Below, one piece after another: positions 2,247-48,055 of a DNA stretch of 64,000 nucleotides; the first letter of the stretch is position 1, and every line of letters starts with the position of its first letter. The DNA comes from an uncultured Candidatus Saccharibacteria bacterium (GTDB taxonomy: Bacteria; Patescibacteriota; Minisyncoccia; Phycocordibacterales; UBA918), in contig CAZRNZ010000001.1 in assembly GCA_964601615.1 (NCBI GenBank), positions 7,658 through 71,657 of the forward strand, written 5' to 3'. The position numbers and the translations under genes were made by a program. The notes beneath the pieces are model-generated. The model searched no databases. It saw only the letters and a list, made by a program, of their open reading frames with translations, and was not told where the DNA came from.

Positions 2247-2780
2247 ATGAGTCTAGACCAGCAGATTGAAGCTATTTTATTTTACAAGGCCGCACCAGTG
2301 GAGAAGGATTTTTTACTTAAAACCCTAAATATTTCCAATGATGAATTGCTCGAGTCTCTAACTTTTTTAAAAAGCCGACTGGTCTCTGGTGTGACCAGGT
2401 TGTTGGAGTCTGATACAGCTGTGGAGTTAGTTTTAGATACCTCATTTGATGGTTTGATTGATGGCTTAAGAAAGGAAGAACTTAATCGAGATATTGGCAA
2501 AGCTGGGGCAGAAACTCTAGCTATTGTGATGTATAAATCACCAGTGTCGAGAGCGGAAATAGATAGAATACGAGGAGTAAATTCTTCATATATATTAAGA
2601 GCTTTAGAAACTAGAGGTTTGGTGGAAAGATCGGTAAAAGGGCAGAGAAGTGAATTTCGCCCAACCACCGAATTATTTAAATTCTTGGGGATACCAGAAA
2701 AGACCAATATGCCAGATTATGCTACTGTAATGGACGCATTAGATAATTTTGAAAAACAACAATTAGTAGAAAATGACTGA
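2247..2780 (+). CDS. scpB: Segregation and condensation protein B (ScpB).
   Basis: N-terminal 'IEAILFYKAAPV' and winged-helix repeats typical of ScpB. Confidence 0.75.
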   Translation: MSLDQQIEAILFYKAAPVEKDFLLKTLNISNDELLESLTFLKSRLVSGVTRLLESDTAVELVLDTSFDGLIDGLRKEELNRDIGKAGAETLAIVMYKSPVSRAEIDRIRGVNSSYILRALETRGLVERSVKGQRSEFRPTTELFKFLGIPEKTNMPDYATVMDALDNFEKQQLVEND

Positions 2781-3819
2781 CAATCAATACGAGACAACAG
2801 AAAATAATACGTCTTTATCAGAAGAGTTTTTTTCTGAACCAATTGTAGAAACAGAACGTAGTAATATGCCGGTAGTAAGACAATTAGTGGTCGTGTCATT
2901 TATTCTATTGGGTGTTTTTTCGATAGGAGCCACTTCGGTTATTTTAAGTAAAATTGAAAAGCAATCTGGAGATAATCCTAATATCGCCGCATCATCAGCA
3001 GCAATAAAAGAAGGGGAAGAAAAAAGTAGCGGAGACCCATTTGCAGATTTGAAGGTAAATGCAAAATCTGCCATTGTGATTGATTTACAAACAGACAGAG
3101 TGCTTTACCAGAAAGAGCCTGATTTAAAGTGGCCGTTAGCTAGTATTACTAAGTTGATGACTGCCTTGGTGGCAAGAGAAATTGTAGAGGAGGGAAGTAG
3201 TGTACAGATAACAAAAGAAGCAATCGGACAGGCAGGAGAAAGTGGTTTTACCGAAGGTGAGAGATTTTCTTACCGTAATTTGTCTGACATGATGCTGCTA
3301 ACTTCATCAAACGACGGAGCTTATGCGTTGGCAGCCGCTGCTGGAAGTGCTTTAAATAATGAAAATCCAGCTGATGCCTTCGTGCGAGCCATGAATGTGA
3401 GGGCTAAGGAGATTGGTTTAACCAAAACTTACTTTAGAAACCCAACAGGATTAGATATTACAGAAGATGAGGCTGGTGCATACGGAACTGCTAGGGAAGT
3501 AGCCGTACTGATGGAATATTTGTTAGAAAATTATCCTGAGATTTTAGAAGAAACAAATAAAAAAACTAGTACTGTTAATAATACAGCAGGTGATAGATAC
3601 GAAACTGAAAATACAAATCGCATGATTGATGCTATCGCAACTTCGCTAGGATCTAAAACGGGTTACACTACTTTAGCTGGTGGAAACCTAGTGGTTGCTT
3701 TTGATGCGGGGATAAATAGACCAGTTGTAGTGGTGGTGTTGGGGTCTTCGCACCAAGGTAGATTTTCTGATGTTTTACGTTTAGTTGAAGCATCAAGGCA
3801 GTATTTAGGTAATGAATAA
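2773..3819 (+). CDS. D-alanyl-D-alanine carboxypeptidase (peptidase S11, PBP5-like) with N-terminal TM anchor.
   Basis: SxxK (SITKLMT), SxN (SSNDG) and KTG (SKTGYT) motifs present. Confidence 0.75.
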   Translation: MTDNQYETTENNTSLSEEFFSEPIVETERSNMPVVRQLVVVSFILLGVFSIGATSVILSKIEKQSGDNPNIAASSAAIKEGEEKSSGDPFADLKVNAKSAIVIDLQTDRVLYQKEPDLKWPLASITKLMTALVAREIVEEGSSVQITKEAIGQAGESGFTEGERFSYRNLSDMMLLTSSNDGAYALAAAAGSALNNENPADAFVRAMNVRAKEIGLTKTYFRNPTGLDITEDEAGAYGTAREVAVLMEYLLENYPEILEETNKKTSTVNNTAGDRYETENTNRMIDAIATSLGSKTGYTTLAGGNLVVAFDAGINRPVVVVVLGSSHQGRFSDVLRLVEASRQYLGNE

Positions 3820-3828
3820 TAAAAGTAT

Positions 3829-4902
3829 ATGGAACTTACTCTCATAAAAGTTTTTTTACCAACCGCGATAGCGTTTTTTATTGGAATTGCTATTACACCT
3901 TTGGTTACTCATTATTTGTTTAAATACAAAGCTTGGAAAAAGTCTTCTGGTAAGGGAAATGGTTATGGCGGAGGGGGAACTCCAATATTTGATAAGCTTC
4001 ATAAAGAAAGAGATACAAACACACCTAGATTGGGTGGAATTGTGATTTGGGGAAGTGTTATTTTGACAGTACTCTTTATATTTTTATTGCAAGTATTTTT
4101 GCCAGAGACAATATTCGGCAAGTTAAATTTTTTGTCTCGTTCTCAGACTTGGCTACCGCTTTTGGCCATGATGGTGGGTGCGATTGTTGGACTGGTTGAC
4201 GATATTTTGACAATTAGAGGTGATGGCAAACACTTTGCTGGTGGTCTACCTCTATCGCAGAGAATGTTGGTAGTAGGACTTACGGCAATCTTTGCTGGTT
4301 GGTGGTTTTATGAAAAGTTGGGAGTAGATAGTGTTTCTTTATTTGGTTTTGGTGATTTAGTACTAGGTATTTGGTTTATTCCTTTCTTTGTTTTTGTGGC
4401 TGTCTGTATTTATATGTCTAGCGTGATAGACGGCCTGGATGGATTAGCAGGAGGGGTGTTTATGTTTATCTTTACTGCTTATGCAGGTATTGCTATTTGG
4501 CAACAACAATTTGATATTGCGGCTTTGTCGGCGACTATCGTAGGTGGTATTTTGGCTTTTCTTTGGTTCAATATTCCGCCAGCTCGTTTTTATATGACAG
4601 AGACAGGTGTAATGGCACTCACTATGTGTCTCACTATCATTGCTTTTATGACTGATAGCTTAGGAGAAGGGGAAGGTGTTTCACTTTTGCCGATTGTGGG
4701 ATTTTTGTTGGTGGCTACGGTAGCTGCTAATACAGCGCAGATTTTATCTAAAAAAATATTAAAGAAAAAATTACTTCTAATTGCACCACTACATCATCAT
4801 TTTGAAGCAATTGGTTGGCCTGCTCACAAGGTAGTGATGCGTTATTGGGTGTTAGGATTTGTCTTTGCTGTGATTGGTTTATTGTTAGCTATCGGTCTAT
4901 AA
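3829..4902 (+). CDS. mraY: Phospho-N-acetylmuramoyl-pentapeptide transferase MraY.
   Basis: Polytopic membrane protein with VDDILTIRGD and PLHHHFE motifs. Confidence 0.85.
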   Translation: MELTLIKVFLPTAIAFFIGIAITPLVTHYLFKYKAWKKSSGKGNGYGGGGTPIFDKLHKERDTNTPRLGGIVIWGSVILTVLFIFLLQVFLPETIFGKLNFLSRSQTWLPLLAMMVGAIVGLVDDILTIRGDGKHFAGGLPLSQRMLVVGLTAIFAGWWFYEKLGVDSVSLFGFGDLVLGIWFIPFFVFVAVCIYMSSVIDGLDGLAGGVFMFIFTAYAGIAIWQQQFDIAALSATIVGGILAFLWFNIPPARFYMTETGVMALTMCLTIIAFMTDSLGEGEGVSLLPIVGFLLVATVAANTAQILSKKILKKKLLLIAPLHHHFEAIGWPAHKVVMRYWVLGFVFAVIGLLLAIGL

Positions 4903-10505: not shown

Positions 10506-11504
10506 ATGACTGATAAAAAAGAAAAAAATAATAACGTTGAGACTTTAAAGACCGCTAATTTTTCTGTCCTCCCCCACATACCGCATTTCCTGACTTCCAT
10601 ACTGGCTAACAATTATTCTAAAAAAACTCACGATTCATATAAGCGTGATTTATTGACCTTCGACCGCTTTTTAGCTTCTGAGATGACTCATATATCGTTT
10701 AATAAGCTTGATAAGCATGTTATTGAGCTATTTAAGGCTCATTTAAATTCAGATGACCGTAAGACCACTTTGGATAAAAAAACAGCGGAAAACAGGCTTT
10801 CTAGCGGTTCAGTTAATCGTATGTTGTCATCCTTGCGTCGGTATTTTGCCTACCTGATTGATATGGATTATGAATCCCCTTTAGCTCCAACGGCAATCAA
10901 GTTGGTGCGAATGGAAAAGAAACATGGTCAAGTTGCTGAGTTGCATGAATTAATTTCCTTAATAGAGTCACCTGCTAAATTTGAAAAAAATAAATTTGTG
11001 GCTTTACGTAATCGTGCCATGCTGGAAACTTTAATGGCTAGTGGTATGCGTATATCCGAACTTCTTAGCCTAAAAACAAGTCAATTAGATAAGTCTGGAC
11101 GTATTTTTATCCAAGGTAAGGGTCGTAAGCAGCGTTTTATCTACCTAACAGAGCGTGCCAAGACTCATATAGATGCTTACCTTAAATTACGTGTTGATGA
11201 AAATACTTTCCTTTTCATTCCTAGGCGTGGCTTAAATGCTGGAGAAAAAAATGCTCGCATCTCCCCCAATTATTTACAAATGAAAATCAAACGCTATCGT
11301 GAATTACTTGGTATAAATGTACCAACATCAGCTCACTCATTGCGTCACGGCTTTGCTACCTATTTGGCCGAACAAGGTGCTAATCCAGCCGCAATTCAGA
11401 TTTTACTTGGTCACGAATCACTCGACACAACGACTCGTTACGTACATGCTTCGGACCGTTATGCTGAAGAAACTCATCGTAAATTTCATCCAGTTAGTGA
11501 GTAA
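10506..11504 (+). CDS. Tyrosine site-specific recombinase, XerC/XerD family.
   Basis: N-terminal SAM-like core-binding domain. C-terminal R...HxxR...Y catalytic motifs (HSLRHGFATYL...TTRYVH). Confidence 0.8.
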   Translation: MTDKKEKNNNVETLKTANFSVLPHIPHFLTSILANNYSKKTHDSYKRDLLTFDRFLASEMTHISFNKLDKHVIELFKAHLNSDDRKTTLDKKTAENRLSSGSVNRMLSSLRRYFAYLIDMDYESPLAPTAIKLVRMEKKHGQVAELHELISLIESPAKFEKNKFVALRNRAMLETLMASGMRISELLSLKTSQLDKSGRIFIQGKGRKQRFIYLTERAKTHIDAYLKLRVDENTFLFIPRRGLNAGEKNARISPNYLQMKIKRYRELLGINVPTSAHSLRHGFATYLAEQGANPAAIQILLGHESLDTTTRYVHASDRYAEETHRKFHPVSE

Positions 11505-37528: not shown

Positions 37529-39847
37529 TCAGTCCCTTTTAAATAATTCATTTATTTCCTCCCTGCTTCCTTCAATTATGTCCCTGTGGCTATCTTCATC
37601 AGCAAAATCTTTTGCAGATTCTTCCATCATCTCTAAAGCTCTATCAGCATGGTTATCACTCATTCTGTCTACGATTGTGGCTACATTGAAAGATGTCATG
37701 TCTAATACATACCTGCGTTCGGAATCTATAAAATTTTCGTTGATCGCTTGTTCAATTTCAGAATTGATGGAATATGTGTCAACTTCGTAGTCATCTGGAG
37801 CTATAAAATCAACATATTTAGTGTAATCAATATCTAAATGATCTTCTATATTATAAAGAATATGATCTTCATATAGCAGAGCAAGATGCTCTGCTATATG
37901 TTTATCTTGTATCTGTCTATCATAAAAGTATCTAAATAAATGCTCAAAGTCGAGATTGTCTATATTACTATTTAGATAAGCCCATAAAAAGTCAAATTTT
38001 TCTGGCACAAATTCTGTTTCAAAAAAAGATAATATGTAATAAAGCTTGTAGAAATCAATTAAGTTTAAGCTCTGTGACTCTTCTTTTTCCAGTGTGGTCA
38101 GACTAGATAAAACTTCAATTATTTTTTCACTGGCAAGATTATTTTCATCGCAGTGTATTAAACATACAAGCCAATTCCAATCTTTCTTAGCAAGTTTACT
38201 TTTATATAACGATTCAAATAAATTTTTCTGTAAATATTTAAATTCTAAATCAGTAATATAGTCATTTCTTTTTAAAGATTCTAAATATTGGATGGATTCA
38301 ATATTTGACAAGGCAAACAATAATTTATTTATCTCAGACTCGTTATTTTTAAAATAATTCTCAACTATATAGTCTCCAAGAGATGGATTAAAAAGAATGT
38401 ATTGAAATTCGTTTTTATCAAAAACTTTACTCCTACTTAGAAGTGAATCTAAAGCTACTTTAATAACGTAACTAAAGGAAGCTTCGTTATCAGAAGAAAA
38501 CTTATTGTAGTTACAAAAAATATCAAAAGAATTTCTTAGGTGTGATTCACTTATTTTTCCGTTATTAAATGCGACTAATAAAACCAGGGTTTTTGTACAC
38601 CTGTCTAACTTTTCGAAATAGTCCTCCCAAATATCACTCGGGTTATCAAGTTTTTCTTCTATGTAGGTAAAATAATCATTACTTTTTATTTCAGAAAACT
38701 CGACCCTCTCTTTTTCTAAAATGTATTCGATTATTCTTGGATTGAAATTACTATGATTAATAATCTTCCAATACTTTTTTTCAAGGTAAATTTGATCAAC
38801 ATAGTCAGGGTCTAATTCAGAAAAATACATATGTTTATACAATATGCGTGCTTTGTCTATCGGTCTTAGGTTTTCGATTTGTAGTACATATTCACTACCT
38901 TTAATATTTCCCTTCTCTAGGGAAGGGAATATTCCTCGTGCCTTATTTATGATGGTGGTGCGAGAATTTAATATAAATTTAAGTTTCTTGGATCGCGCTA
39001 CTCTGTCCATAAATAACATAATTTGGGAAGAATCATCTCCTTTGGAAATATCCATAAAATTTTCACCAAGAAAGTCATCAAAATAAAAAACTATGTTACA
39101 TTCTTGATTTGCTGACACAATATCTTCAGCTTCTTTGATGTTCCTGATTGAATAGAAAGAATATCCATTCTTTACATATGTAAATGCAAGCATATTTGAT
39201 AGTGTTGTCTTTCCAATGCCTGCTTCTCCAGTGATTACTACAACATTCTTTTCATCCAAACGTTTTCCAGCTTTATCAAAATCTTCAGTGTAAACAAATC
39301 GAACAGAATTTTTCTTTATATTCTCAAGTAGAAAATCACTTTGTCCTTGCAGTCCGCCAGTAAGCGCATTTGCAATTGTCTGCCCTAAAATCTTTTTCAG
39401 AAGAATCTCTGAATATATGTATAGCTGTGTATATTTTTTAACAATGTCAAAATTCTCTTCTTTTGAGAGAAAACTCTGTATATCATCGAACCCCCAAATA
39501 TCTTCCACGCCTTTAATGAAGCCGTTCATAATAGATAGCATCTCAGCTTTTTTTAGTGGAGTGACTTTACCAGAAGTCATAAAGATATACCTTTCAGGGT
39601 TCAGGGCTTTGACTTTGTTCGTTTCTAATTTTAATGCAGATATAATACGAACAGATGTCGCGTCAGGATAATGCTTCGCCTGTATTATTACACTTTGATT
39701 TTCACCCACCCAAAATCTTCCATCGATACCGCTGTCTTTTCCAACGGTAAAACGTTCAACTCGTTTACCATTCTCTTTCTCAATGATGTCAGCACACAAG
39801 TTTTCAAATTCTCTTGAATCAAGTCTTTTAAGATCGTATTCGGTCAT
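37529..39847 (-). CDS. Mrr-type PD-(D/E)xK nuclease domain fused to a NACHT-like STAND P-loop NTPase, with a C-terminal alpha-helical region (Avs/bNACHT-like antiviral protein).
   Basis: N-terminal 'GKDSGIDGRF...VIIQAKHY' Mrr_cat-like motifs. Walker A 'ITGEAGIGKTT'. Walker B 'IVFYFDDFLGE'. NACHT 'TSR'-like 'ILNSRTT'. Long helical C-terminus. Confidence 0.65.
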   Translation of the reverse strand: MTEYDLKRLDSREFENLCADIIEKENGKRVERFTVGKDSGIDGRFWVGENQSVIIQAKHYPDATSVRIISALKLETNKVKALNPERYIFMTSGKVTPLKKAEMLSIMNGFIKGVEDIWGFDDIQSFLSKEENFDIVKKYTQLYIYSEILLKKILGQTIANALTGGLQGQSDFLLENIKKNSVRFVYTEDFDKAGKRLDEKNVVVITGEAGIGKTTLSNMLAFTYVKNGYSFYSIRNIKEAEDIVSANQECNIVFYFDDFLGENFMDISKGDDSSQIMLFMDRVARSKKLKFILNSRTTIINKARGIFPSLEKGNIKGSEYVLQIENLRPIDKARILYKHMYFSELDPDYVDQIYLEKKYWKIINHSNFNPRIIEYILEKERVEFSEIKSNDYFTYIEEKLDNPSDIWEDYFEKLDRCTKTLVLLVAFNNGKISESHLRNSFDIFCNYNKFSSDNEASFSYVIKVALDSLLSRSKVFDKNEFQYILFNPSLGDYIVENYFKNNESEINKLLFALSNIESIQYLESLKRNDYITDLEFKYLQKNLFESLYKSKLAKKDWNWLVCLIHCDENNLASEKIIEVLSSLTTLEKEESQSLNLIDFYKLYYILSFFETEFVPEKFDFLWAYLNSNIDNLDFEHLFRYFYDRQIQDKHIAEHLALLYEDHILYNIEDHLDIDYTKYVDFIAPDDYEVDTYSINSEIEQAINENFIDSERRYVLDMTSFNVATIVDRMSDNHADRALEMMEESAKDFADEDSHRDIIEGSREEINELFKRD

Positions 39848-39878: not shown

Positions 39879-42092
39879 TTATGGCAATAATCCACAAACA
39901 TCAGTATATAATTTTTTTAACTCATCAATGCTCATATCAAGTATTGGTTCATACATAAAAGAATTGAGATGAATGTTCTCTGGAGTCATAATATTTACTC
40001 TTTCTAGAATAATAAGGGCATTTTTCAGACTATCATCTCTCACAGAATCATCTTTATATCTTTCAAATAATTCTCGCGTTTGGTTAACTGAAATTCGACT
40101 TCTATCCGTAATTTTAGCCAACATGTACTCCTCAGCTTTCTGTCGTATTGCTATAGCAAGAATAATTTTATTTTCCAGATTAAACTCCTCATCTCGTATC
40201 GTAGATGCTACTGTCAATAAATGCTGATAGACAATATCTGTATCAGCAATAGTTGCATCAAAGTCATCCCTGTCTATATGCTCTTTAAAGATAAGTTTCA
40301 AATCAGAAAATGTAATATTGCCTGTGTTTGTTTTAGAGTGTAGTAAACATGTTAAAGTGCTGAAATCATCACCGTGAGCAGTTGAGCTGAGAGATCTTCT
40401 GCTGTATTCGATTAGATTTCTGACAAAAGGAATCAAGGCCAAAATATGCTTTTTTGCATCGTCAGCTGTGAAATCTTTATCTTTATACTGTCCACTTTTT
40501 AGACAGTTCATCCAAGTTATAAAGGGTGGATTTTGATACACTTCTTTGATGAGACTTATCCCGTCAAGAGTTTTAATTGCGTGTTTCTTACAATCTCTTG
40601 AAAGACCTAGTCTGCTAGTTATTGTCCTGTAGAAGTCAAAATTGTGAGTAAGGATTATTGAGTAGAAATTACTACCTTTATTGAGGTCATTTAGATATTC
40701 AACAATTGCATATTTGTTTTTATAATCAAACGAATCAGCAATGTCATCAATAATAAAAACAGTTTCTTGATTTTGTAATTGTCTCGATTTAATTTCAAAA
40801 ATAACATTAAGTAAGTAAAAAGCCCGTCTCTCTCCCTGACTTAGGATATTATCTACCATTGTCTTACGTTCGACCGGCTTCCCTTGGAATGAAAAATCAA
40901 TAGCAGGTGTTTGATTGTTTAAAACAGCATCTGCTTTATTATTGATTGCTATCTTAAAAGGTACATTTGCAAATCGGTTTTCAAACTCACCAATAGCTGC
41001 TTCCCATGCTGATTGACCATCTTTAGCCTTTTGGATTATTTCCTCTAAATCTTTTTCTTTGCTCTTGTATAAATCGACCAATACCTCAATACTGGGTGAG
41101 ATCTGTTTCAAGAACCCAAACCATACCTCTCTTTTAAAATCATCGTAATTTACTAACTTTGCAAGAATCTGTTGATTCTTCTTTTGAGTGATAACTTTTT
41201 TAAAGGCCCTTAATGTTTTTGTTTTATCTAGCTTTTTCTCAATTTCTTGAAATAACTCGCGTAATTTTTCATCATTAAATATCTTTTCAACCTCTTCATT
41301 TAAAATTATTGAAAAATCTTCAGACTTTTGAATTTCACCATGTTTTTTCAGTAATAATTTATGTCCCGTGTTGAAATACTCATCTCCCTCTAGGGATGAA
41401 TTTAAAGATTTTGCCTCAGTGGTACCAAAGATGTTTTGGGCATTTTTACCAAAAAACTCAGAATCACTCACGAGTTCCTCATATTTCTCTATGTAGTTTT
41501 GTAATAGCTGAAAGTTCTCACTCAAAAAATCCCGTACCTCATTTTTTGGATCAAACACATCGTTGTATTTAAAATCAAAAAATTCTTTTGCAGATTTAAT
41601 CTCTGGCAGAGTTGTCTCAAAAATCTCAAATATGTTTTTCTTTTTTAGATATGAAAAAGCATCATTGATTTCTGCCTCGTAGTTACCACTACCAGTTATT
41701 TTTTTAAGTCCTGATAGTGTAGCTTTTTTTTGGGAGTCAATTTCTTTGTATATTGTTAGATATTCTTTTCGGGTTTCTTCATCTGCTAGAAGTGTAAGAA
41801 CCTCTTCAGAATTAAATGCTTTGTCGTTATAGGGTTCAATGACACAAATATTTTCTGGCTGCACAGGTATTCCGTCTTCTCGAAACACATCAAAGGTAGG
41901 CATTAACGAGGTATCCATTTGGTCGCATGGTTTACTTTTTGACGAAATATCTTTGAATGTTTTGGCAAAGGAGGTCTTCATTACTCCGTTGGCTGCATAA
42001 ATAGCGATAGTTTTACATTTTGAAAAATCAAACTCACCTTCAAGCTTTTTTATACCGTAACAGTTTTCAAATTTAATGGCTAATTTATTCAT
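39879..42092 (-). CDS. PrrC/RloC/AAA_13-like ABC-type ATPase with a degenerate Walker A, a long coiled-coil insert, and an uncharacterised C-terminal domain.
   Basis: N-terminal 'IAIYAANGVMKTSFAKTF' resembles the AAA_13 'IYGRNGSGKST' P-loop, with the second Gly replaced. Walker B/D-loop 'VFIIDDIADSFD' lies about 410 aa downstream. The intervening region is Lys/Glu-rich and helical. Confidence 0.55.
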   Translation of the reverse strand: MNKLAIKFENCYGIKKLEGEFDFSKCKTIAIYAANGVMKTSFAKTFKDISSKSKPCDQMDTSLMPTFDVFREDGIPVQPENICVIEPYNDKAFNSEEVLTLLADEETRKEYLTIYKEIDSQKKATLSGLKKITGSGNYEAEINDAFSYLKKKNIFEIFETTLPEIKSAKEFFDFKYNDVFDPKNEVRDFLSENFQLLQNYIEKYEELVSDSEFFGKNAQNIFGTTEAKSLNSSLEGDEYFNTGHKLLLKKHGEIQKSEDFSIILNEEVEKIFNDEKLRELFQEIEKKLDKTKTLRAFKKVITQKKNQQILAKLVNYDDFKREVWFGFLKQISPSIEVLVDLYKSKEKDLEEIIQKAKDGQSAWEAAIGEFENRFANVPFKIAINNKADAVLNNQTPAIDFSFQGKPVERKTMVDNILSQGERRAFYLLNVIFEIKSRQLQNQETVFIIDDIADSFDYKNKYAIVEYLNDLNKGSNFYSIILTHNFDFYRTITSRLGLSRDCKKHAIKTLDGISLIKEVYQNPPFITWMNCLKSGQYKDKDFTADDAKKHILALIPFVRNLIEYSRRSLSSTAHGDDFSTLTCLLHSKTNTGNITFSDLKLIFKEHIDRDDFDATIADTDIVYQHLLTVASTIRDEEFNLENKIILAIAIRQKAEEYMLAKITDRSRISVNQTRELFERYKDDSVRDDSLKNALIILERVNIMTPENIHLNSFMYEPILDMSIDELKKLYTDVCGLLP

Positions 42093-42098
42093 ACATTC

Positions 42099-43190
42099 TT
42101 ACCGCAAAAATCTAATCTGCAAATTTAGTTTCATTCGCTGTTCGCGGTTTTCTTCATAGATTTTTCCAAACCTATGACGAATAGTACTTGGTGTATCTAG
42201 TTTTGTATTGTGAAAGAGATAGTCCTCAAATTTGTCGCGGTTATAAAGATGGTAACAGACAATATCACCGTCTTCTTTCACAACAATGTAACCACCGTGC
42301 GCTTCAGTGTATCCATCCCAATCTTTACTCGGCATCATTCCCAGGGCGATACTTGATAGAAAACTTTTTATGTTCATCACTAACATTTCTTTAGTGAAAT
42401 CAATCTGCTCCATAAAGGTAGTATCGTTGGCAATCTTATCCATCAAATCCTTGATGGTAGTTGCTTCTCCCATGTAGTAGTGTTTCAGCATCTGAGCGAC
42501 AATCTTGGGGAATATCGAATCAATTTTTCGAAGGTTACGCCTAAAAATGTCGTTATCCATTCCTATATACTCAAGCTTTGCGCCCACATCATAGGTTAAT
42601 TTTGCAGCATCTCTAACAGACAAGTTGTTGCTACTTTCCACGGGTTTATTATCTTCAGTAGCAATTCTATATAAAAAATTAGTTGCTCCAGATGCATTAA
42701 GGAGAGTTGCGGGCGAACCGAGCATTGATTTGATACTAAAACCTAGCTCTGGAAATTCAGGAGACTTCTTATCATGTAAAACAATTGTTAAGTCGGCCTT
42801 TTTGGCACTCGACGCACGCATTTGGGTACAATAGAGATCGTTCATTGATTCTGTCGCACTTGCAACCTCAAATGTTGTTCCTTCTGAGTTTTTAATCTGT
42901 TCAAAAACTTTAGCAACGCCACCCTTGATTTTTTCCAAATTTACCACACCTATCTCCTCATTTTCACTTGAAATAACAACCAGTCCATCGTTTTTGGAAA
43001 TGTCGTACTCCCTCTTTCCAACTGCCTCCTGACGAATAATTTTCAAAACAATATGAAAATTATCTTCAAGTATTTTTAGATTTTTATCTGCTGTAAAAAC
43101 TTTTCCATCAGTCAAGATTTTAATAAAGGCATAGAATTCAGACCATTCTCCTTTATTGCCTTTGAGAGTTGTAGTAATTTTATTTGTCAT
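42099..43190 (-). CDS. Type II restriction endonuclease, HpaII-like (predicted CCGG specificity).
   Basis: N-terminal 'KGNKGEWSEFYAFIKIL' recalls the RE_HpaII family. Size is about 360 aa. It overlaps by 11 nt the upstream M.HpaII-like methyltransferase gene. Confidence 0.5.
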   Translation of the reverse strand: MTNKITTTLKGNKGEWSEFYAFIKILTDGKVFTADKNLKILEDNFHIVLKIIRQEAVGKREYDISKNDGLVVISSENEEIGVVNLEKIKGGVAKVFEQIKNSEGTTFEVASATESMNDLYCTQMRASSAKKADLTIVLHDKKSPEFPELGFSIKSMLGSPATLLNASGATNFLYRIATEDNKPVESSNNLSVRDAAKLTYDVGAKLEYIGMDNDIFRRNLRKIDSIFPKIVAQMLKHYYMGEATTIKDLMDKIANDTTFMEQIDFTKEMLVMNIKSFLSSIALGMMPSKDWDGYTEAHGGYIVVKEDGDIVCYHLYNRDKFEDYLFHNTKLDTPSTIRHRFGKIYEENREQRMKLNLQIRFLR

Positions 43191-44847
43191 ATTTTTCTAG
43201 GGTTTCAATTATTCTTTCCGCAACTGCTTGAATTGCTGGGACAGCAACAGAGTTACCAAGCTGTTTCATCGATTGAACACTTGATACCTCTTCTGGAAAC
43301 TCAAACCATTTGGGGAATCCTTGCATCTTCAAGCCTTCTTTAGGTCCAATCTGCACAACTTTTCCGTCCACACGATACGCGTCCCAATTTCTGCGGTCAT
43401 TAATACTACTGCCACGACCCCCAACACGAAGGGTAAAACCAACATCTCTATCGCATTTACCGCCAAATATATCTGACATGGTGTACTTCAACTCTTTTAC
43501 TGGTTCTGGAAATTCAAAAGGAATTGTATTATCACGAAAACCAACCATAAACAAACGCGGCCGATGTTGTGGAACTCCAAAATCTGAAGCTTTTACAATT
43601 TTCGCGTGGAATGAATACCCAAGATCTTCTTCGATAATTCGTTTAATTGTTTCAAAAGTTTTTCCGCCATCGTGAGCATATAATCCACGTACATTTTCAA
43701 GAAAAAACGCTTTTGGCTGCTTTTCTTTCATTATGCGAACTACATCAAAAAACAACGTGCCGCGCGCTTCTGCAAAACCTTTTTTGAAACCTGCTTGTGA
43801 GAATGGCTGACAAGGAAATCCGCCTGTGATTATGTCAAAATCAGGCATTTCTTTTTCGTTGACCTTTGTTATATCTCCGACAAAATTACCACTTCTGAAC
43901 ACGTCGGGTGAAACTTTGTAAAAATTATGTCTATATGTACTTCGTGCTGGTTCATCCCACTCCGAAACAAAAACGCATTCAGCGCCGACATTATGAAATG
44001 CAACATGAAAACCACCGATACCTGCAAAAAGGTCGATGAATTTATGCTTTGTTTTTGTCAGTGGTTCTGGTGCTTTATCGTTGACTCCTAGAAAATACAT
44101 ATGACGTGAATCGACAAGAAGGCCAAATAGTGACCCTTGATTACCTTCAGCAACATAATCAGTCGCTTTCGGTTCCATTTTTTGTAATTCGGCAAGAATA
44201 CTATGTACACCTTGTTCAGCAATAATAAGAAAATCTATGACGTTTATACCGATAATCTTACCTGCTTCAATAATTCGGGCAGCAACCTGTTTGTCTTCGT
44301 TACTCGGTGAAGGGTCACCAGATGGGTGATTGTGAATAACAATGACACTAGCAGCATGTTTCTCAAGTCCAGGAGCAAATACTTCTCGCGGATGGATAAT
44401 ACTTTTGTCCAAAGTGCCGATAGATACAATTTCTTTATGTACTAAAACACTTCGAGCGTTGAGGTAAAGACAAACCAAGTGTTCCTTTTTTGCTGTTTTG
44501 AGTTCAGGAACCAATATCGCAGCATCAATGGCAGACAACACCATATGTTCCTCTTCGCCGTTATGTTTGTCATACATACGTCGCGCCAGGGCAAACATTG
44601 AAGCAATTTGCAATGCTTTGACATCTCCTATTCCAGAAATTTGTTTCAAATCTTCCACGGTTGCGTCCATTAGATTATTACCAAATTTTCTGGATATTTT
44701 TTGAGCAAGTAACTTGACGTTTGTGCCTTTGATACCACTTCCAAGTAAAATAGCGAGTAGTTCACTGTCGGTGAGAGCATCGCTACCTTTTCCAAGAAAT
44801 TTCTCGCGTGGTCTGTCGTATTTTGGTGTATCTTTGAGTTTAGCCAT
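43180..44847 (-). CDS. Fusion protein: an N-terminal RadC-like JAB/MPN domain joined to a C-terminal DNA (cytosine-5)-methyltransferase (M.HpaII/Dcm-like).
   Basis: Residues 1-250 carry the HhH 'LSDSELLAILLGSG' and JAB motif 'IVIHNHPSGDPSPSNED'. Residues ~270-555 carry motif I 'FIDLFAGIGGF', motif IV 'GGFPCQPFSQAG', motif VI 'FFLENVRGL', and 'GNSVAVPAIQA'. The reading frame is continuous across both parts. Confidence 0.8.
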   Translation of the reverse strand: MAKLKDTPKYDRPREKFLGKGSDALTDSELLAILLGSGIKGTNVKLLAQKISRKFGNNLMDATVEDLKQISGIGDVKALQIASMFALARRMYDKHNGEEEHMVLSAIDAAILVPELKTAKKEHLVCLYLNARSVLVHKEIVSIGTLDKSIIHPREVFAPGLEKHAASVIVIHNHPSGDPSPSNEDKQVAARIIEAGKIIGINVIDFLIIAEQGVHSILAELQKMEPKATDYVAEGNQGSLFGLLVDSRHMYFLGVNDKAPEPLTKTKHKFIDLFAGIGGFHVAFHNVGAECVFVSEWDEPARSTYRHNFYKVSPDVFRSGNFVGDITKVNEKEMPDFDIITGGFPCQPFSQAGFKKGFAEARGTLFFDVVRIMKEKQPKAFFLENVRGLYAHDGGKTFETIKRIIEEDLGYSFHAKIVKASDFGVPQHRPRLFMVGFRDNTIPFEFPEPVKELKYTMSDIFGGKCDRDVGFTLRVGGRGSSINDRRNWDAYRVDGKVVQIGPKEGLKMQGFPKWFEFPEEVSSVQSMKQLGNSVAVPAIQAVAERIIETLEKYDK

Positions 44848-44854
44848 ACATTGA

Positions 44855-45079
44855 TTACTTCAAAAGTTTGTCACTTGTGACTCCAAGCGCTATAGCAATG
44901 CGTTCGATGGTAGCAAGTGTCGGATTGCCTTTTCCAGCTTCAAGATTGCTAATGAAAGCTCTGTCGCACTTCAACGCTCTGCATATATCGCCTTGAGACA
45001 TACGCTTATCCTCTCGAACACGTTTCATATTTTTCGCTAGTCGTTTTGGTGCTTGTTGCATATCATTTCCACAGTGCAA
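44855..45079 (-). CDS. XRE-family HTH transcriptional regulator (controller-protein-like). The start is probably the ATG at 45061 rather than the TTG at 45079.
   Basis: HTH_3 motif 'RMSQGDICRALKCDRAFISNLEAGKGNPTLATIERIAIALGV'. It ends 7 nt before the methyltransferase gene. Confidence 0.7.
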   Translation of the reverse strand: MHCGNDMQQAPKRLAKNMKRVREDKRMSQGDICRALKCDRAFISNLEAGKGNPTLATIERIAIALGVTSDKLLK

Positions 45080-45081
45080 TC

Positions 45082-45093
45082 ATTATACAAGAA
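45082..45093 (-). promoter_or_regulatory. Extended -10 promoter (TGTATAAT) of the defence operon.
   Basis: The minus-strand sequence reads cttgTATAATgattgcactgtggaaATGatATG, about 20 nt upstream of the regulator's ATG. Confidence 0.4.
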
Positions 45094-45315
45094 TATTGTA
45101 TTGTGTGCTAATGATTTATAATACAACAGTGGTACAGAATTGGATATTTCTTTGGTTGTGGGGCGAGCGATAGCGAAGCACATCAAACCCCATGAGTATA
45201 CAGAAGTACAAAGCCACCACGCGCCTGGCGCGCCCTGCTTCGGTGCAGAATAGCGATTTATTTATGAGCCTTCTCGTGATAGAACCAAATGATTTCATTG
45301 CCTCGTAAGGTCATT

Positions 45316-45927
45316 TTAGTTGGTCGGACTGATTTGCTCCGACCCTTCTCCAGAGATATATTTTAGATCAGAAAACACATCCTCAAACCCTGTGGCTTTT
45401 AAAATTTGCTTCGCTTCAATTTTAGTATCTCTTTTATCATCTAGATCAACACTTACTCTACATGCTTCTATCATTCCAGATATGTAAGCATTATCTAATT
45501 TGTGTTGTTTAGCTCCCGCAACCATAAGTGCCAAATACCAATCGTATACTGGTAAGCCACTTATATATTTTTCAGTTGGAGCAATGTATGTCCTTACATT
45601 ATTCAGTACTTTACCCTCAAAAATTACCGTAAAATCTTCTTTTACGATGTAACCACCGTTACCCCTACCTTCAGCACTGTCTAGTTTTATTATTTCGTCA
45701 CCACTATCGTCAATTTCAAATAGAACTCCATAAACAATATCAGACTCGTTGCACGTTTTTAGTAAGGTCGCTTTGGCTGAATCATCTTTACTTTCTTTGA
45801 TAAGTATTACCTTATAGCCCATAACAATTGCTTTGCCGAGAGGTTCCGCACTTGTACACCGTTTTGGTGCCTTGAGCCGTTCTGTCAGCATGTTTGAACC
45901 GTATGCGAAGTATTTCATATAGGCCAT
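45316..45927 (-). CDS. Gamma-glutamyl cyclotransferase / AIG2-like (GGCT fold) protein.
   Basis: N-terminal 'YFAYGSNM' hallmark of the GGCT/AIG2 fold, plus a downstream acidic catalytic-region candidate. Confidence 0.55.
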   Translation of the reverse strand: MAYMKYFAYGSNMLTERLKAPKRCTSAEPLGKAIVMGYKVILIKESKDDSAKATLLKTCNESDIVYGVLFEIDDSGDEIIKLDSAEGRGNGGYIVKEDFTVIFEGKVLNNVRTYIAPTEKYISGLPVYDWYLALMVAGAKQHKLDNAYISGMIEACRVSVDLDDKRDTKIEAKQILKATGFEDVFSDLKYISGEGSEQISPTN

Positions 45928-45954: not shown

Positions 45955-47010
45955 CTAATTTGCAACATCACCAAATAACGAGCCTTGGTTTTTGTTCTTC
46001 TCATCGAATTTCTTTTTTTCTTTTTTTAGTTCCAAATCCTTTTTGTGTTGAACTAAATTATCATTATGGGATGTGACTCTCTTTACATACAACCTTGGTT
46101 TGCCAAATTTACCATTTACATAGTCGTAGAAGCGACTAATGTCAAAAACTACACCTATATTGTCTCCACTAGTAAATGAGATTTCTTGATTCAAGATTTG
46201 ATTTTTATATTCATCATCTTGCATATAAAAAAATATATTTTCACCATCTTCGATAATGATTTGATTGTCTTCATCGAAGACATCAGAGCCATAATAGACA
46301 CCCTTCCACGGCACACCCCTGCCATATTGCTGTTGTTTTTCGATAAATGGTTGTGATAATTGTATATTTCCAGATAAATCAATCTTTAGAAACTCTTTTT
46401 CTTTCGGAATTTCTTCTATATAGTTCTTAAAATCATCTCTTTTTATTTCAGTTTGAAATATCCTTTGTTTTTCTTCAGATATTGTCGGTTTAATACTAAG
46501 AATATCTCTGTCTGCCATTACAGACTGATAAAAAATATTTTTCTGTTTTTTAGGATAATACGAATCGCATATCTCTTCTACCTTTTGTATCTGTTCATCG
46601 CTGAGATTAAAACTTTTACATTTTTCTACTATTCCTAAAGTATTAAGGTCTGATGTAGTGTCGTTCAGTCTTATCTGACTACTAAACAATAATGCTGCCA
46701 ACAAGGTAGTAACTGCCAAAGCTACACCCTGATTATCATTTAAAAATTTAACTACTGTATGCTCTTTAAAAGAACCTTCTTCTGGAGGTAACGTTAAAAT
46801 CTCAAAATGCTCGTCTGGACACAATGTCTTTATCAAATACGATATGATCTCCACTTGTGCCAAGGCACAAGTGTTTCTGACGTGAAAATTTATTGCATGA
46901 ACATCATCACTGGTGAAGTTATAGTGTAGTTCAAGGGTTATTTCTTTTTTAGTCAAATCCGTTCCCATTTTTAACTTTTTGTATTGATATGAATCATTTC
47001 GTTTCTGCAC
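45955..47010 (-). CDS. Hypothetical soluble protein (351 aa). Start is uncertain: GTG at 47010, or ATG at 46968.
   Basis: No recognisable motifs. It is AT-rich and overlaps or abuts the upstream membrane-protein gene. Confidence 0.45.
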   Translation of the reverse strand: MQKRNDSYQYKKLKMGTDLTKKEITLELHYNFTSDDVHAINFHVRNTCALAQVEIISYLIKTLCPDEHFEILTLPPEEGSFKEHTVVKFLNDNQGVALAVTTLLAALLFSSQIRLNDTTSDLNTLGIVEKCKSFNLSDEQIQKVEEICDSYYPKKQKNIFYQSVMADRDILSIKPTISEEKQRIFQTEIKRDDFKNYIEEIPKEKEFLKIDLSGNIQLSQPFIEKQQQYGRGVPWKGVYYGSDVFDEDNQIIIEDGENIFFYMQDDEYKNQILNQEISFTSGDNIGVVFDISRFYDYVNGKFGKPRLYVKRVTSHNDNLVQHKKDLELKKEKKKFDEKNKNQGSLFGDVAN

Positions 47011-47443
47011 TAGAAATCATAAATAACCAATTCATCACTATTATTAACAAACTGACCGCTGGCAAATACGCAAAGCCACCTAATAAGAATGGGTATAAGT
47101 ACGCGCTTATGCTACCAATCCACTGATTATTCTCATCCGTAGCCAGGGCAAGAAAGAACACAACATAGGTGAAGCAGATAATTGTGGACACCAATATCCA
47201 GGTTAAATAATCTAACTGTCGACTAGATAATTTGTATTTTTGCCACTCAAAAACCAAATAGTTGGTAACGGCAAAAAATATAATCATGCCGGACTGCAAA
47301 ATAATCCCACTAGTCTCCTTAGGCTCAGTTCCAGCAAAACTAAATATTGCTTCAATTACTACTGGGAAAAACACAGCCAGCATTACCACTAATTGTATTT
47401 TCTTTTCGACGCTCTTTATCTTTTCCTTGACTGTTAATTCCAT
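46994..47443 (-). CDS. Small four-TM membrane protein (149 aa).
   Basis: Four hydrophobic helices (LVVMLAVFFPVVIEAIF, IIFFAVTNYLVF, ILVSTIICFTYVVFFLAL, LLGGFAYLPAVSLLIIVMNWLF). Confidence 0.5.
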   Translation of the reverse strand: MELTVKEKIKSVEKKIQLVVMLAVFFPVVIEAIFSFAGTEPKETSGIILQSGMIIFFAVTNYLVFEWQKYKLSSRQLDYLTWILVSTIICFTYVVFFLALATDENNQWIGSISAYLYPFLLGGFAYLPAVSLLIIVMNWLFMISSAETK

Positions 47444-47980: not shown

Positions 47981-48055
47981 TGGTGACCCCACGGGAAATC
48001 GAATCCCGATTTCTGCCGTGAGAGGGCAGCGTCCTAACCGTTAGACGATGGGGCC
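47981..48055 (-). tRNA. tRNA-Glu (anticodon CUC), with an encoded CCA end.
   Basis: The minus-strand sequence GGCCCCATCGTCTAACGGTTAGGACGCTGCCCTCTCACGGCAGAAATCGGGATTCGATTTCCCGTGGGGTCACCA folds into a cloverleaf (7-bp acceptor stem, anticodon loop CUCUCAC, T-loop TTCGATT). Confidence 0.8.

Follow-up and report, generated by a model that had tools for sequence, protein, structure and literature searches.

The DNA stretch analysed here (64,000 nucleotides of an uncultured Candidatus Saccharibacteria bacterium, contig CAZRNZ010000001.1 of assembly GCA_964601615.1, from here on referred to as the window) harbours a tight operon of three co-oriented genes: a small helix-turn-helix (HTH) gene, then a gene in which RadC is fused in frame to a cytosine-5 (C5) DNA methyltransferase (MTase; the fusion, M) and finally an R.HpaII-family restriction endonuclease gene (R). 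The operon is situated inside a defence island of ~37.5-47.4 kb in this Patescibacteria (candidate phyla radiation, CPR) chromosome (Table 1). Within this Type II restriction-modification (R-M) operon the fusion gene provides the modification subunit, in agreement with an original prediction that was made from the letters of the window alone. The endonuclease gene adjoins it, its start overlapping the stop of M by 11 nt, and this pairing of M and R, typical of a Type II R-M system, is conserved in the comparison loci L001-L006 and L013-L016. In the six closest loci (L001-L006) the fusion is followed by an R.HpaII-family endonuclease 77-85% identical to the one in the window, and in three of these six an HTH gene is located upstream.

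The fusion gene and its operon

Searches with Pfam and NCBIfam, together with the motifs read in the translation, confirmed that a single unbroken open reading frame (ORF) of 555 amino acids (aa) encodes both RadC and the C5 MTase. With cut-offs of 22-27 bits for the three domains of the fusion, Pfam matched UPF0758_N (PF20582) at aa 5-78 (77 bits, 8.6e-22), the RadC JAB domain (PF04002) at aa 110-217 (120 bits, 5.2e-35) and DNA_methylase (PF00145) from aa 269 to ~550 (263.5 bits, cut-off 22, 4.2e-78), and HHH was found at aa 57-82. The protein also passes the curated NCBIfam cut-offs of both the RadC family, in full length with N-domain and JAB (equivalog NF000642, 209.5 bits with a cut-off of 180, and TIGR00608, 191.1 bits with a cut-off of 133.85, both over aa 12-217), and the C5 MTase family (dcm, TIGR00675, 270.6 bits with a cut-off of 100.65). 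A complete RadC had been predicted for the N-terminal ~250 aa; it is indeed complete, but RadC proper ends at ~aa 217 and residues 218-265 form a linker. The strings quoted in the original prediction could be found in the translation apart from one residue, LSDSELLAILLGSG reading LTDSELLAILLGSG (LTDSELL... and not LSDSELL...), and this stretch, proposed to be the helix-hairpin-helix (HhH), instead belongs to the UPF0758_N signature, the HhH being the one located by Pfam at aa 57-82.

The JAMM site of the RadC part consists of E155 and H172-N-H174-PSGDPSP-S182-NE-D185, which fits the metal-binding motif E...H-x-H-x(7)-S-x(2)-D. When comparing 112 fused sequences, H172, H174, S182 and D185 were kept in at least 98% and E155 in at least 90%. 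The MTase motifs I (DLFAGIGGF, aa 272-280), IV (GFPCQ, with C346), VI (ENV, aa 384-386), VIII (QHRPR, aa 427-431) and X (GNSVAVPAIQA, aa 531-541, with GNSV at 531-534) show either no variation or at least 90% conservation in an alignment of 67 sequences, and the variable region is short (~aa 437-500). The JAB part matches the RadC homologue PDB 2qlc (1e-22), and the nearest solved structure of the MTase part is M.HhaI (4e-62 by sequence; Foldseek 2e-26, TM 0.72). When the whole model was run through Foldseek against PDB the methylase half alone was matched and nothing on RadC. This AlphaFold model, built on the 67-sequence alignment, shows two confident modules (mean pLDDT 79.8, pTM 0.55) with the linker left unplaced (pLDDT below 50 for aa 225-250) and low pLDDT in the catalytic loop, aa 350-363.

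Among the 112 fused sequences the mean column conservation is 0.84-0.86 in both RadC sub-domains (0.86 for aa 1-90), matching that of the methylase, and the linker is the least conserved part (mean 0.69) with the exception of an embedded motif described below. Because the sub-domains are conserved like the methylase and the JAMM residues are kept in at least 90%, the RadC module appears to be under selection as an active enzyme, the activity being a predicted one; according to a review from 2025 no biochemical work exists on RadC-type domains (PMC11981726). Stand-alone RadC/YicR (UPF0758; PDB 2QLC) has the HhH N-domain and JAB, the equivalog cut-off and the E...HxH...S..D pattern in common with the fused module, but ends just after JAB without the Q-x-S-L-F found in the linker of the fusion, and the fused copy is a diverged paralogue of it (47% identity in locus L019).

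The HTH gene stops 7 nt ahead of the start of M and its likely true start is the ATG at 45061 (MQQAPKR...), the protein having 68-74 aa depending on the start. Upstream of it a palindrome, ATACAA-TATTC-TTGTAT (45085-45101), overlaps an extended -10 box, TGTATAAT (45082-45089). An HTH gene takes the same position in L001-L003, L015, L016 and L019. The protein shows weak matches to the controller (C) proteins C.BclI, C.Esp1396I and C.AhdI (E 3e-4 to 8e-3), no better than those to HipB and CylR2, and with this weak likeness to solved controller proteins it may plausibly act as a C protein. The gene order would then be C-M-R, to be compared with the usual C-R unit of controller-protein R-M systems.

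Table 1. Features of the R-M operon and the surrounding defence island (positions in the window; all on the minus strand).
Feature	Position	Strand	Basis or remark
RadC-C5 DNA methyltransferase fusion gene, M subunit of R-M system	43180..44847	-	ORF, Pfam and NCBIfam domains, twin assembly copy, >110 homologous clusters
UPF0758_N domain with HhH (aa 1-90), predicted DNA-binding part of RadC	44578..44847	-	PF20582, HHH, conservation
RadC-type JAB/MPN+ domain (aa 91-217), metal site intact	44197..44577	-	PF04002, PDB 2qlc, conserved residues
Inter-domain linker (aa 218-265), predicted flexible	44053..44196	-	AlphaFold pLDDT, low conservation
Conserved docking-type peptide TDYVAEGNQGSLFGLLVDS (aa 229-247), candidate beta-sliding-clamp-binding motif	44107..44163	-	alignment of 112 members
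C5 cytosine methyltransferase module (aa 266-555)	43180..44052	-	PF00145, M.HhaI match by sequence and Foldseek
R.HpaII-family restriction endonuclease, 363 aa	42099..43190	-	PF09561 RE_HpaII 1.4e-106, full-length; PADLOC REase_II 4.9e-91
Small XRE-type HTH protein, candidate controller (C) protein	44855..45079	-	HTH_3 6.8e-11
Putative operator/promoter-like element	45082..45101	-	read from sequence
Second NQGSLFG copy, C-terminal tail of PDC-S42-like protein, outside R-M operon	45970..45990	-	six-frame translation
772-aa protein, N-terminal Mrr-type restriction nuclease domain and nSTAND3 NTPase	37529-39847	-	PADLOC PDC-S73, 612 bits
737-aa ATPase, directly after R.HpaII	39879-42092	-	PADLOC PDC-S46, 756 bits; without Pfam hit
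GGACT/AIG2-like (gamma-glutamyl cyclotransferase fold) protein	45316-45927	-	flanks PDC-S42-like gene
PDC-S42-like candidate defence protein	45955-47010	-	ATG 14 codons downstream probably true start, 337 aa
149-aa predicted membrane protein	46994-47443	-	flanks PDC-S42-like gene, overlaps its start
tRNA-Glu(CTC), sole tRNA gene in window	47981-48055	-	between island and dcw cell-division cluster

The methylase had been described as M.HpaII-like, which holds loosely at best: the catalytic core is 41% identical to authentic M.HpaII (E 3e-70; the reference was checked and is 98% identical to database proteins named modification methylase HpaII), the target-recognition region is much shorter than that of M.HpaII and aligns poorly, with large gaps across aa 439-510, and the closest structure is that of M.HhaI. 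Like the HpaII Type IIP system (CCGG), the operon has adjacent, co-oriented M and R genes with a full-length RE_HpaII member as R, and its methylase shows all C5 motifs, motif I being preceded by a Qxx[LI]F peptide. Unlike it, the fusion has ~220 extra N-terminal residues (RadC) besides the shorter variable region, an HTH gene is found upstream and there is no vsr gene in the window. The presumed specificity, CCGG, is deduced from the linkage to the R.HpaII-family gene. CCGG is mildly under-represented in the window (50 observed and 70 expected, ratio 0.71), and this avoidance was rejected as evidence of specificity, being no stronger than that of GATC (0.50) or GGCC (0.65).

Spread of the RadC cassette

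An assembly artefact or a frameshift at the junction, for which the original prediction had asked for a check, was ruled out by the intact ORF, by an identical 555-aa protein with the same gene order in two independent assemblies (on contigs of 56 kb from Logan and 310 kb from NCBI) and by the number of homologues. A search covering 5.8 billion proteins revealed more than 110 clusters at 90% identity (a lower bound) with the same three-domain architecture, 51-92% identical to the query at 100% coverage. The named clusters belong to Parcubacteria/Paceibacterota, Moranbacteria, Beckwithbacteria, Gracilibacteria and Kerfeldbacteria, while genome loci with the fusion were also found in metagenome-assembled genomes (MAGs) labelled Saccharibacteria and Bacteroidales, and related fusions in MAGs labelled Armatimonadota and Campylobacterales. 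The fusion had been put forward as undescribed, a claim to be given up if such fusions turned out to be common and already annotated as ordinary R-M methyltransferases. It has to be modified in part, since they are common and are annotated by pipelines, the names given being "DNA repair protein RadC" or "DNA (cytosine-5)-methyltransferase 1"; a description of a RadC-methyltransferase fusion was not found in the literature searched.

Among the viral contigs of IMG/VR no close relative of the fusion was found with a single-protein query, which reaches close relatives only, and a phage origin was rejected on this result. Nor does the fusion group with the polyvalent proteins that Iyer et al. (2017) described from conjugative elements and phages, as it is chromosomal with housekeeping flanks, has no close viral-contig relative and is always paired with a resident endonuclease. 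The expression of a stand-alone MTase isoform from internal Met codons, another suggestion of the original prediction, is not supported by the family, M224 being present in 6 and M250 in 20 of 112 members. P0118 (348 aa, Magasanikbacteria), annotated as a stand-alone DNA cytosine methyltransferase, starts with MDFIIVAKNG..., a stretch of the final JAB strand of RadC, and retains the linker motif, which makes it either a degraded fusion or a protein with a mis-called start. Full-length RadC is also found C-terminally in two longer proteins, P0179 (515 aa) and P0202 (529 aa), where in one case it follows a class-I SAM methyltransferase domain (Methyltransf_11/23/25) and in the other a region without Pfam match.

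When the RadC part alone was used as query in an exhaustive HMMER search of 1.84 billion representatives, its nearest relatives were mostly long proteins with RadC at the N-terminus. According to Pfam this RadC lineage is fused to three MTase classes, C5 (PF00145), Dam-like D12 N6-adenine (N6A; PF02086) and N6/N4 beta-class (PF01555), and every fusion examined is located directly 5' of a Type II endonuclease gene. Downstream of the fusions five endonuclease families were identified: HpaII (P0078 and P0107), NgoFVII_C (P0112 and the Campylobacterales protein), HaeII (P0119), AlwI (after a D12 fusion, together with a second methylase) and EcoRII-C (after the N6/N4 fusion of Armatimonadota, NQV17896.1). 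In the distant fusions the layout [HTH]-[RadC-M]-[R]-[Vsr] is kept and the endonuclease family varies. Most of the related C5 cassettes carry vsr; in the window neither vsr nor a second RadC gene was found. Since each of the fusions examined has a Type II endonuclease gene of its own behind it, these proteins do not qualify as bifunctional enzymes of Type IIG/IIC.

In the proteins partnered with NgoFVII and HaeII endonucleases the MTase variable region is 23-25% identical to the query and has 33-34 extra residues, which would fit a different specificity, and their RadC module is 63-77% identical compared with 58% in the HpaII-partnered P0107. This incongruence between the modules indicates that a cassette of RadC and linker has probably been shuffled among methylases. 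A neighbour-joining tree of 158 RadC modules placed all 18 N-terminally fused modules in a single clade of 27 tips, in which D12 and C5 fusions are interleaved and several members of "stand-alone size" are clearly truncated fusions. Where MTase-only HpaII systems were identified (MAGs with the labels Saccharibacteria, Gracilibacteria and Patescibacteria group), the enzymes are ~70% identical to the methylase part and start ~8 residues ahead of motif I. The contig of L019 contains both the fusion and a free RadC of 220 aa, 47% identical to each other, so the fused RadC is an extra paralogue and not the sole copy of the cell. Judged from these comparisons, RadC and linker behave as a portable N-terminal accessory of R-M methylases, and the protein in the window can be seen as the modification methylase of a Type II system bearing an accessory cassette that is conserved and, in the literature searched, undescribed.

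RadC fusions described earlier resemble the present one in that RadC is an accessory on DNA-acting proteins in contexts of genome conflict or replication, while DNA methyltransferase partners and an R-M operon context are not among them. A further parallel is given by the M.HpaII-Vsr fusions (PF00145 and PF03852, ~560 aa), where an HpaII-type methylase is likewise joined to a repair-type module and named after the accessory domain, but there Vsr is C- or N-terminal and has a known activity tied to deamination of 5-methylcytosine (5mC), whereas RadC is also found on adenine methylases. About 25 of 120 M.HpaII-family proteins are such M.HpaII-Vsr fusions of ~560 aa, some of them annotated as "DNA mismatch endonuclease Vsr" only.

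The linker peptide and a proposed role for the cassette

The conserved peptide of the linker has its core, Q237-G-S-L-F241, at nt 44125-44139. Y231, A233 and F241 are found in all 112 members, G235 and Q237 in 110, L240 in 107 and S239 in 106, while position 2 of the motif (residue 238) is free (S, A, G or T). The pattern Y-[VIL]-x-x-G-x-Q-x-[ST]-L-F is likewise found behind RadC in the D12 fusions and the C5 fusion from Campylobacterales, the element being degenerate in two proteins among the fusions compared, and it occurs in 1 of 125 RadC representatives of stand-alone size.

In the authentic M.HpaII family (proteins P0332-P0451 from Pasteurellaceae, Neisseria and Bacteroidota) Q-x-x-[LIM]-[FL] is present in 114 of 119 proteins, mostly 19-21 residues before motif I, with a chance expectation of 0.017 per protein. 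Examples are EEPAAQYSLFE and AEEALQYGIFD, and the N-terminal tail of M.HpaII bearing the Q-x-x-[LI]-F peptide reads EEPAAQYSLFEPE. To see if the motif is a packed structural element the structure of M.HpaII was predicted, and in this AlphaFold model of modest quality the tail was unplaced (pLDDT 30-39). Since the peptide is present in authentic M.HpaII, in the linker and in the D12 fusions, it appears to be an ancestral lead-in of HpaII-type methylases, to which RadC would have been added upstream before the combined cassette spread.

A six-frame translation of the window revealed two occurrences of Q.[STD][LM]F, both NQGSLFG, one in the linker and one at the very end of the PDC-S42-like protein (...KNKNQGSLFGDVAN). 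The two copies differ in 5 of 21 nt, and because all five differences are synonymous a duplication of the DNA is not the explanation. Among Patescibacteria homologues of the PDC-S42-like protein 44 of 50 end with K-N-Q-x-S-L-F-[DNG] after a Lys/Glu-rich spacer, a placement that resembles C-terminal clamp motifs. Near the MTase-only HpaII systems of L007 (7457-7813, plus strand) and L009 (6798-7112, plus strand) there are small ORFs with an N-terminal Q-x-D-L-[FL]-x-E-P (QGDLLVEP and QQDLFYEP) that is similar to clamp-type motifs. A replication or repair protein of the same lineage carrying the motif, with which it could have been compared, was found neither in the 24 loci nor in the window, and none of the window ORFs scanned was recognised as a DnaN gene.

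The consensus for binding of the bacterial sliding clamp is QL[S/D]LF (PMC9690074), in its general form Q-phi-x-L-F, and positions 1, 4 and 5 matter most for binding (10.64898/2026.05.27.728225). In the putative clamp-binding peptide of the fusion linker, DYVAEGNQGSLFGLLVD, the Q and the L-F lie in a segment of low pLDDT, positions 1, 4 and 5 are near-invariant in the family and position 3 is S or T, with S agreeing with the consensus. From the resemblance of the motif, its flexible or terminal placement and its recurrence in unrelated proteins we infer docking on the beta sliding clamp. Together with the distribution described above this suggests, with a rough probability of 0.4, that RadC and the docking peptide raise the concentration of the methylase on newly made DNA, at the replication fork or behind it. 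The role of the cassette would then be generic to the task of any R-M methylase, namely to have new DNA modified by the time the endonuclease meets it; the peptide would most likely dock on the clamp, the HhH/JAB module of RadC would bind or process a DNA structure at or behind the fork and the two would jointly place the methylase on nascent DNA, with RadC itself at the replisome, in a bacterial parallel to DNMT1-PCNA. Since N6A and N6/N4 methylases carry this RadC lineage too, the mechanism is unlikely to be one that depends on C5 chemistry. Other fusion partners of RadC are HhH, ArdC, DnaG-type primases and DinG/YoaA-like helicases (PMC3239186; PMC11981726), all of which act on single-stranded or fork DNA, and what the methylase partners have in common is their DNA substrate and the need to modify new DNA before the endonuclease cuts.

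Several points weigh against this proposal. The small or polar residue at position 2 departs from known clamp motifs, which prefer an aliphatic residue there, and Ala at this position weakens binding in model peptides (10.64898/2026.05.27.728225), predicting weak clamp binding. The conserved stretch also exceeds a pentapeptide (Y-V-A-E-G-x-Q-x-S-L-F-D-L-L, then a second element Y-F-Y) and could instead serve a different partner, in a structural or a regulatory capacity. A low pLDDT does not by itself demonstrate disorder, the M.HpaII model is of modest quality, the tree of RadC modules carries no support values and the stand-alone HpaII-type MTases of Patescibacteria work without either RadC or peptide. 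An interaction between a bacterial DNA methyltransferase and the clamp was not found in the literature searched.

There are precedents for methylases coupled to replication. DNMT1 has a PIP-box peptide through which it attaches to the sliding clamp, and this promotes the methylation of DNA just replicated (PMC9690074); as in the fusion, a C5 MTase is equipped with a short peptide of the Q-x-x-[LI]-x-x-F type that is not part of its catalytic domain. The differences are that clamp binding by the fusion is putative, that the motif is QxxLF and that the purpose would be self-protection from a restriction enzyme and not epigenetic inheritance. M.BceJIII and M.EcoGIX are plasmid-encoded single-strand DNA (ssDNA) methylases associated with Pol I (PMC7736820), and DpnA of the pneumococcal DpnII system is a competence-induced ssDNA methylase (PMC5069739). 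They resemble the fusion in being aimed at a state of the DNA, incoming or replicating, and not at the bulk duplex, but belong to other methylase classes, lack RadC and are targeted by the timing of expression or by association with Pol I.

DpnA also points to an alternative in which RadC brings the methylase to transforming ssDNA or recombination intermediates, so that incoming DNA is methylated before the endonuclease acts. For this speaks that radC is part of the streptococcal core SigX competence regulon, listed beside dpnA (PMC5069739), and is competence-induced in other bacteria (PMC6237807), that Saccharibacteria are naturally competent (PMC10633639), that the known partners of RadC include primases and the ssDNA-binding ArdC module, whose substrate is entering DNA (PMC3239186), and that the fusion is enriched in Patescibacteria. 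RadC is, however, dispensable for transformation in the three species reported (PMC6237807). The peptide is shared with M.HpaII enzymes and a defence protein that have no link to competence, the fold of the C5 MTase resembles that of double-strand enzymes such as M.HhaI, and in none of the loci examined do competence genes adjoin the cassette, making this explanation an unlikely one.

It is also improbable that the JAB domain is a peptidase that clears trapped methylase-DNA adducts, cuts the linker to free the methylase or degrades the partner endonuclease so that the system stays harmless to the cell. C5 methyltransferases form a covalent Cys-C6 intermediate, and the intact catalytic residues, the majority of C5 enzymes among the fusions listed and the presence of vsr, a gene for repair of 5mC damage, in C5 cassettes would all agree with such an activity. 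The occurrence of the same RadC lineage on N6A and N6/N4 methylases, enzymes that work without a covalent intermediate, argues against it and weakens self-cleaning of covalent C5 adducts as a general rationale. Moreover the partner endonucleases come from five unrelated families, RadC-type JABs are reported to lack the groove for the ubiquitin tail, the linker is not predicted by AlphaFold to dock in the JAB site, and a literature search on RadC and DNA-protein crosslinks gave only unrelated matches such as the RADAR assay.

Very little probability is given to RadC adding a second DNA-cutting or repair activity, either as in a Type IIG-like bifunctional enzyme or as a helper for restriction or mismatch intermediates. 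The argument is a contextual one, RadC replacing a 3'-5' exonuclease on DinG-type helicases (PMC3239186), to which can be added the retained HhH DNA-binding domain, the precedent of Vsr, a repair nuclease joined to C5 methylases of the M.HpaII family, and the absence of vsr from the window cassette, unlike most related C5 cassettes. Nevertheless a dedicated endonuclease gene always follows the fusion, which makes a second restriction nuclease unneeded, cassettes with vsr still have RadC, and RadC has neither a demonstrated nuclease activity nor a nuclease-like fold (PMC11981726). Finally, it is highly doubtful that there is no coupling in cis, two neighbouring genes in a mobile cassette having run together on loss of a stop codon to give a fusion that is harmless or aids persistence of the cassette, with RadC working as when free: stand-alone RadC and fusion do share the L019 contig, MTase-only HpaII systems exist in the same phylum and the domains are predicted by AlphaFold to be structurally independent, but the architecture persists down to 51% identity (range 51-92%), purifying selection acts on the two modules to a similar degree, the combinations extend to three classes of MTase and five families of REase, and there is a conserved linker peptide that is absent from free RadC (1/125).

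Placement of the methylase on nascent DNA by RadC and peptide can be extended to a broader proposal, which as a whole is doubtful: that many R-M methyltransferases including classical M.HpaII are recruited to the clamp via Q-x-x-[LI]-F, that RadC is a replisome-associated processor of nascent DNA, that the fusions represent both a "Rosetta stone" for RadC and maintenance methylation of the DNMT1-PCNA type, and that the PDC-S42-like family surveys replicating DNA by means of the same peptide. RadC is among the most widely conserved bacterial proteins without known activity; a paper from 2008 asked whether the name is misleading, an activity is still lacking in the literature and the mechanism is called elusive in papers from 2025-2026 (PMC11981726). 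The recurrent fusion to three unrelated classes of R-M methylases gives a strong clue by guilt-by-association, pointing to the handling of newly made or acquired DNA, and the interest of the fusion lies in this recurrence and not in uniqueness. The peptide common to the fusions, to classical M.HpaII and to a candidate defence protein offers a concrete and testable hypothesis. If it is true, it would show how restriction systems spare the host after replication, and methylases and defence proteins would join the clamp interactome; if it is false, the fusion is still an undescribed accessory-domain variant of Type II methylases, mislabelled "DNA repair protein RadC".

Genes around the operon

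Besides the operon the defence island contains genes for a Mrr-nuclease/STAND NTPase (PDC-S73), an ATPase (PDC-S46), a GGACT-like protein and the PDC-S42-like protein, and at its edges a tRNA-Glu gene and housekeeping genes (the dcw cluster, aminoacyl-tRNA synthetases and a Pif1-type helicase) were identified. The tRNA-Glu(CTC) gene is a plausible integration site for the island. The original prediction also suggested that RadC could act as sensor or effector of the downstream ATPase and STAND proteins, which found no support: PADLOC lists these as separate single-gene candidates (PDC-S46 and PDC-S73) and they are absent beside most related cassettes, L005 being the only one among L001-L006 to have a PDC-S46 homologue. 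In L005 this homologue (41% identical, 2291-4372) is located directly after R.HpaII, as in the window, and the pairing in two of seven close cassettes could reflect either clustering in defence islands or a real association. On the other side of the operon the genes for the GGACT/AIG2-like protein, the PDC-S42-like protein and the membrane protein may form one unit.

The G+C content is low at 37-42 kb (0.29-0.33), the lowest part of the window, and this is where the PDC-S73-type gene is situated. When analysing the GC skew it was found to be strongly positive at 2-9 kb (0.19-0.29, with genes on the plus strand) and negative from ~37 kb on (genes on the minus strand), with a maximum of the cumulative skew at ~28-29 kb, and the window may span the replication terminus. 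Two further genes are located far from the island, one for a XerC/D-type integrase at 10506-11504 and one ORF of 713 aa with EPTP/DUF6242-type repeats at 27-2168 (plus strand), the latter with a G+C content of 0.48-0.50 compared with ~0.38 elsewhere in the window.

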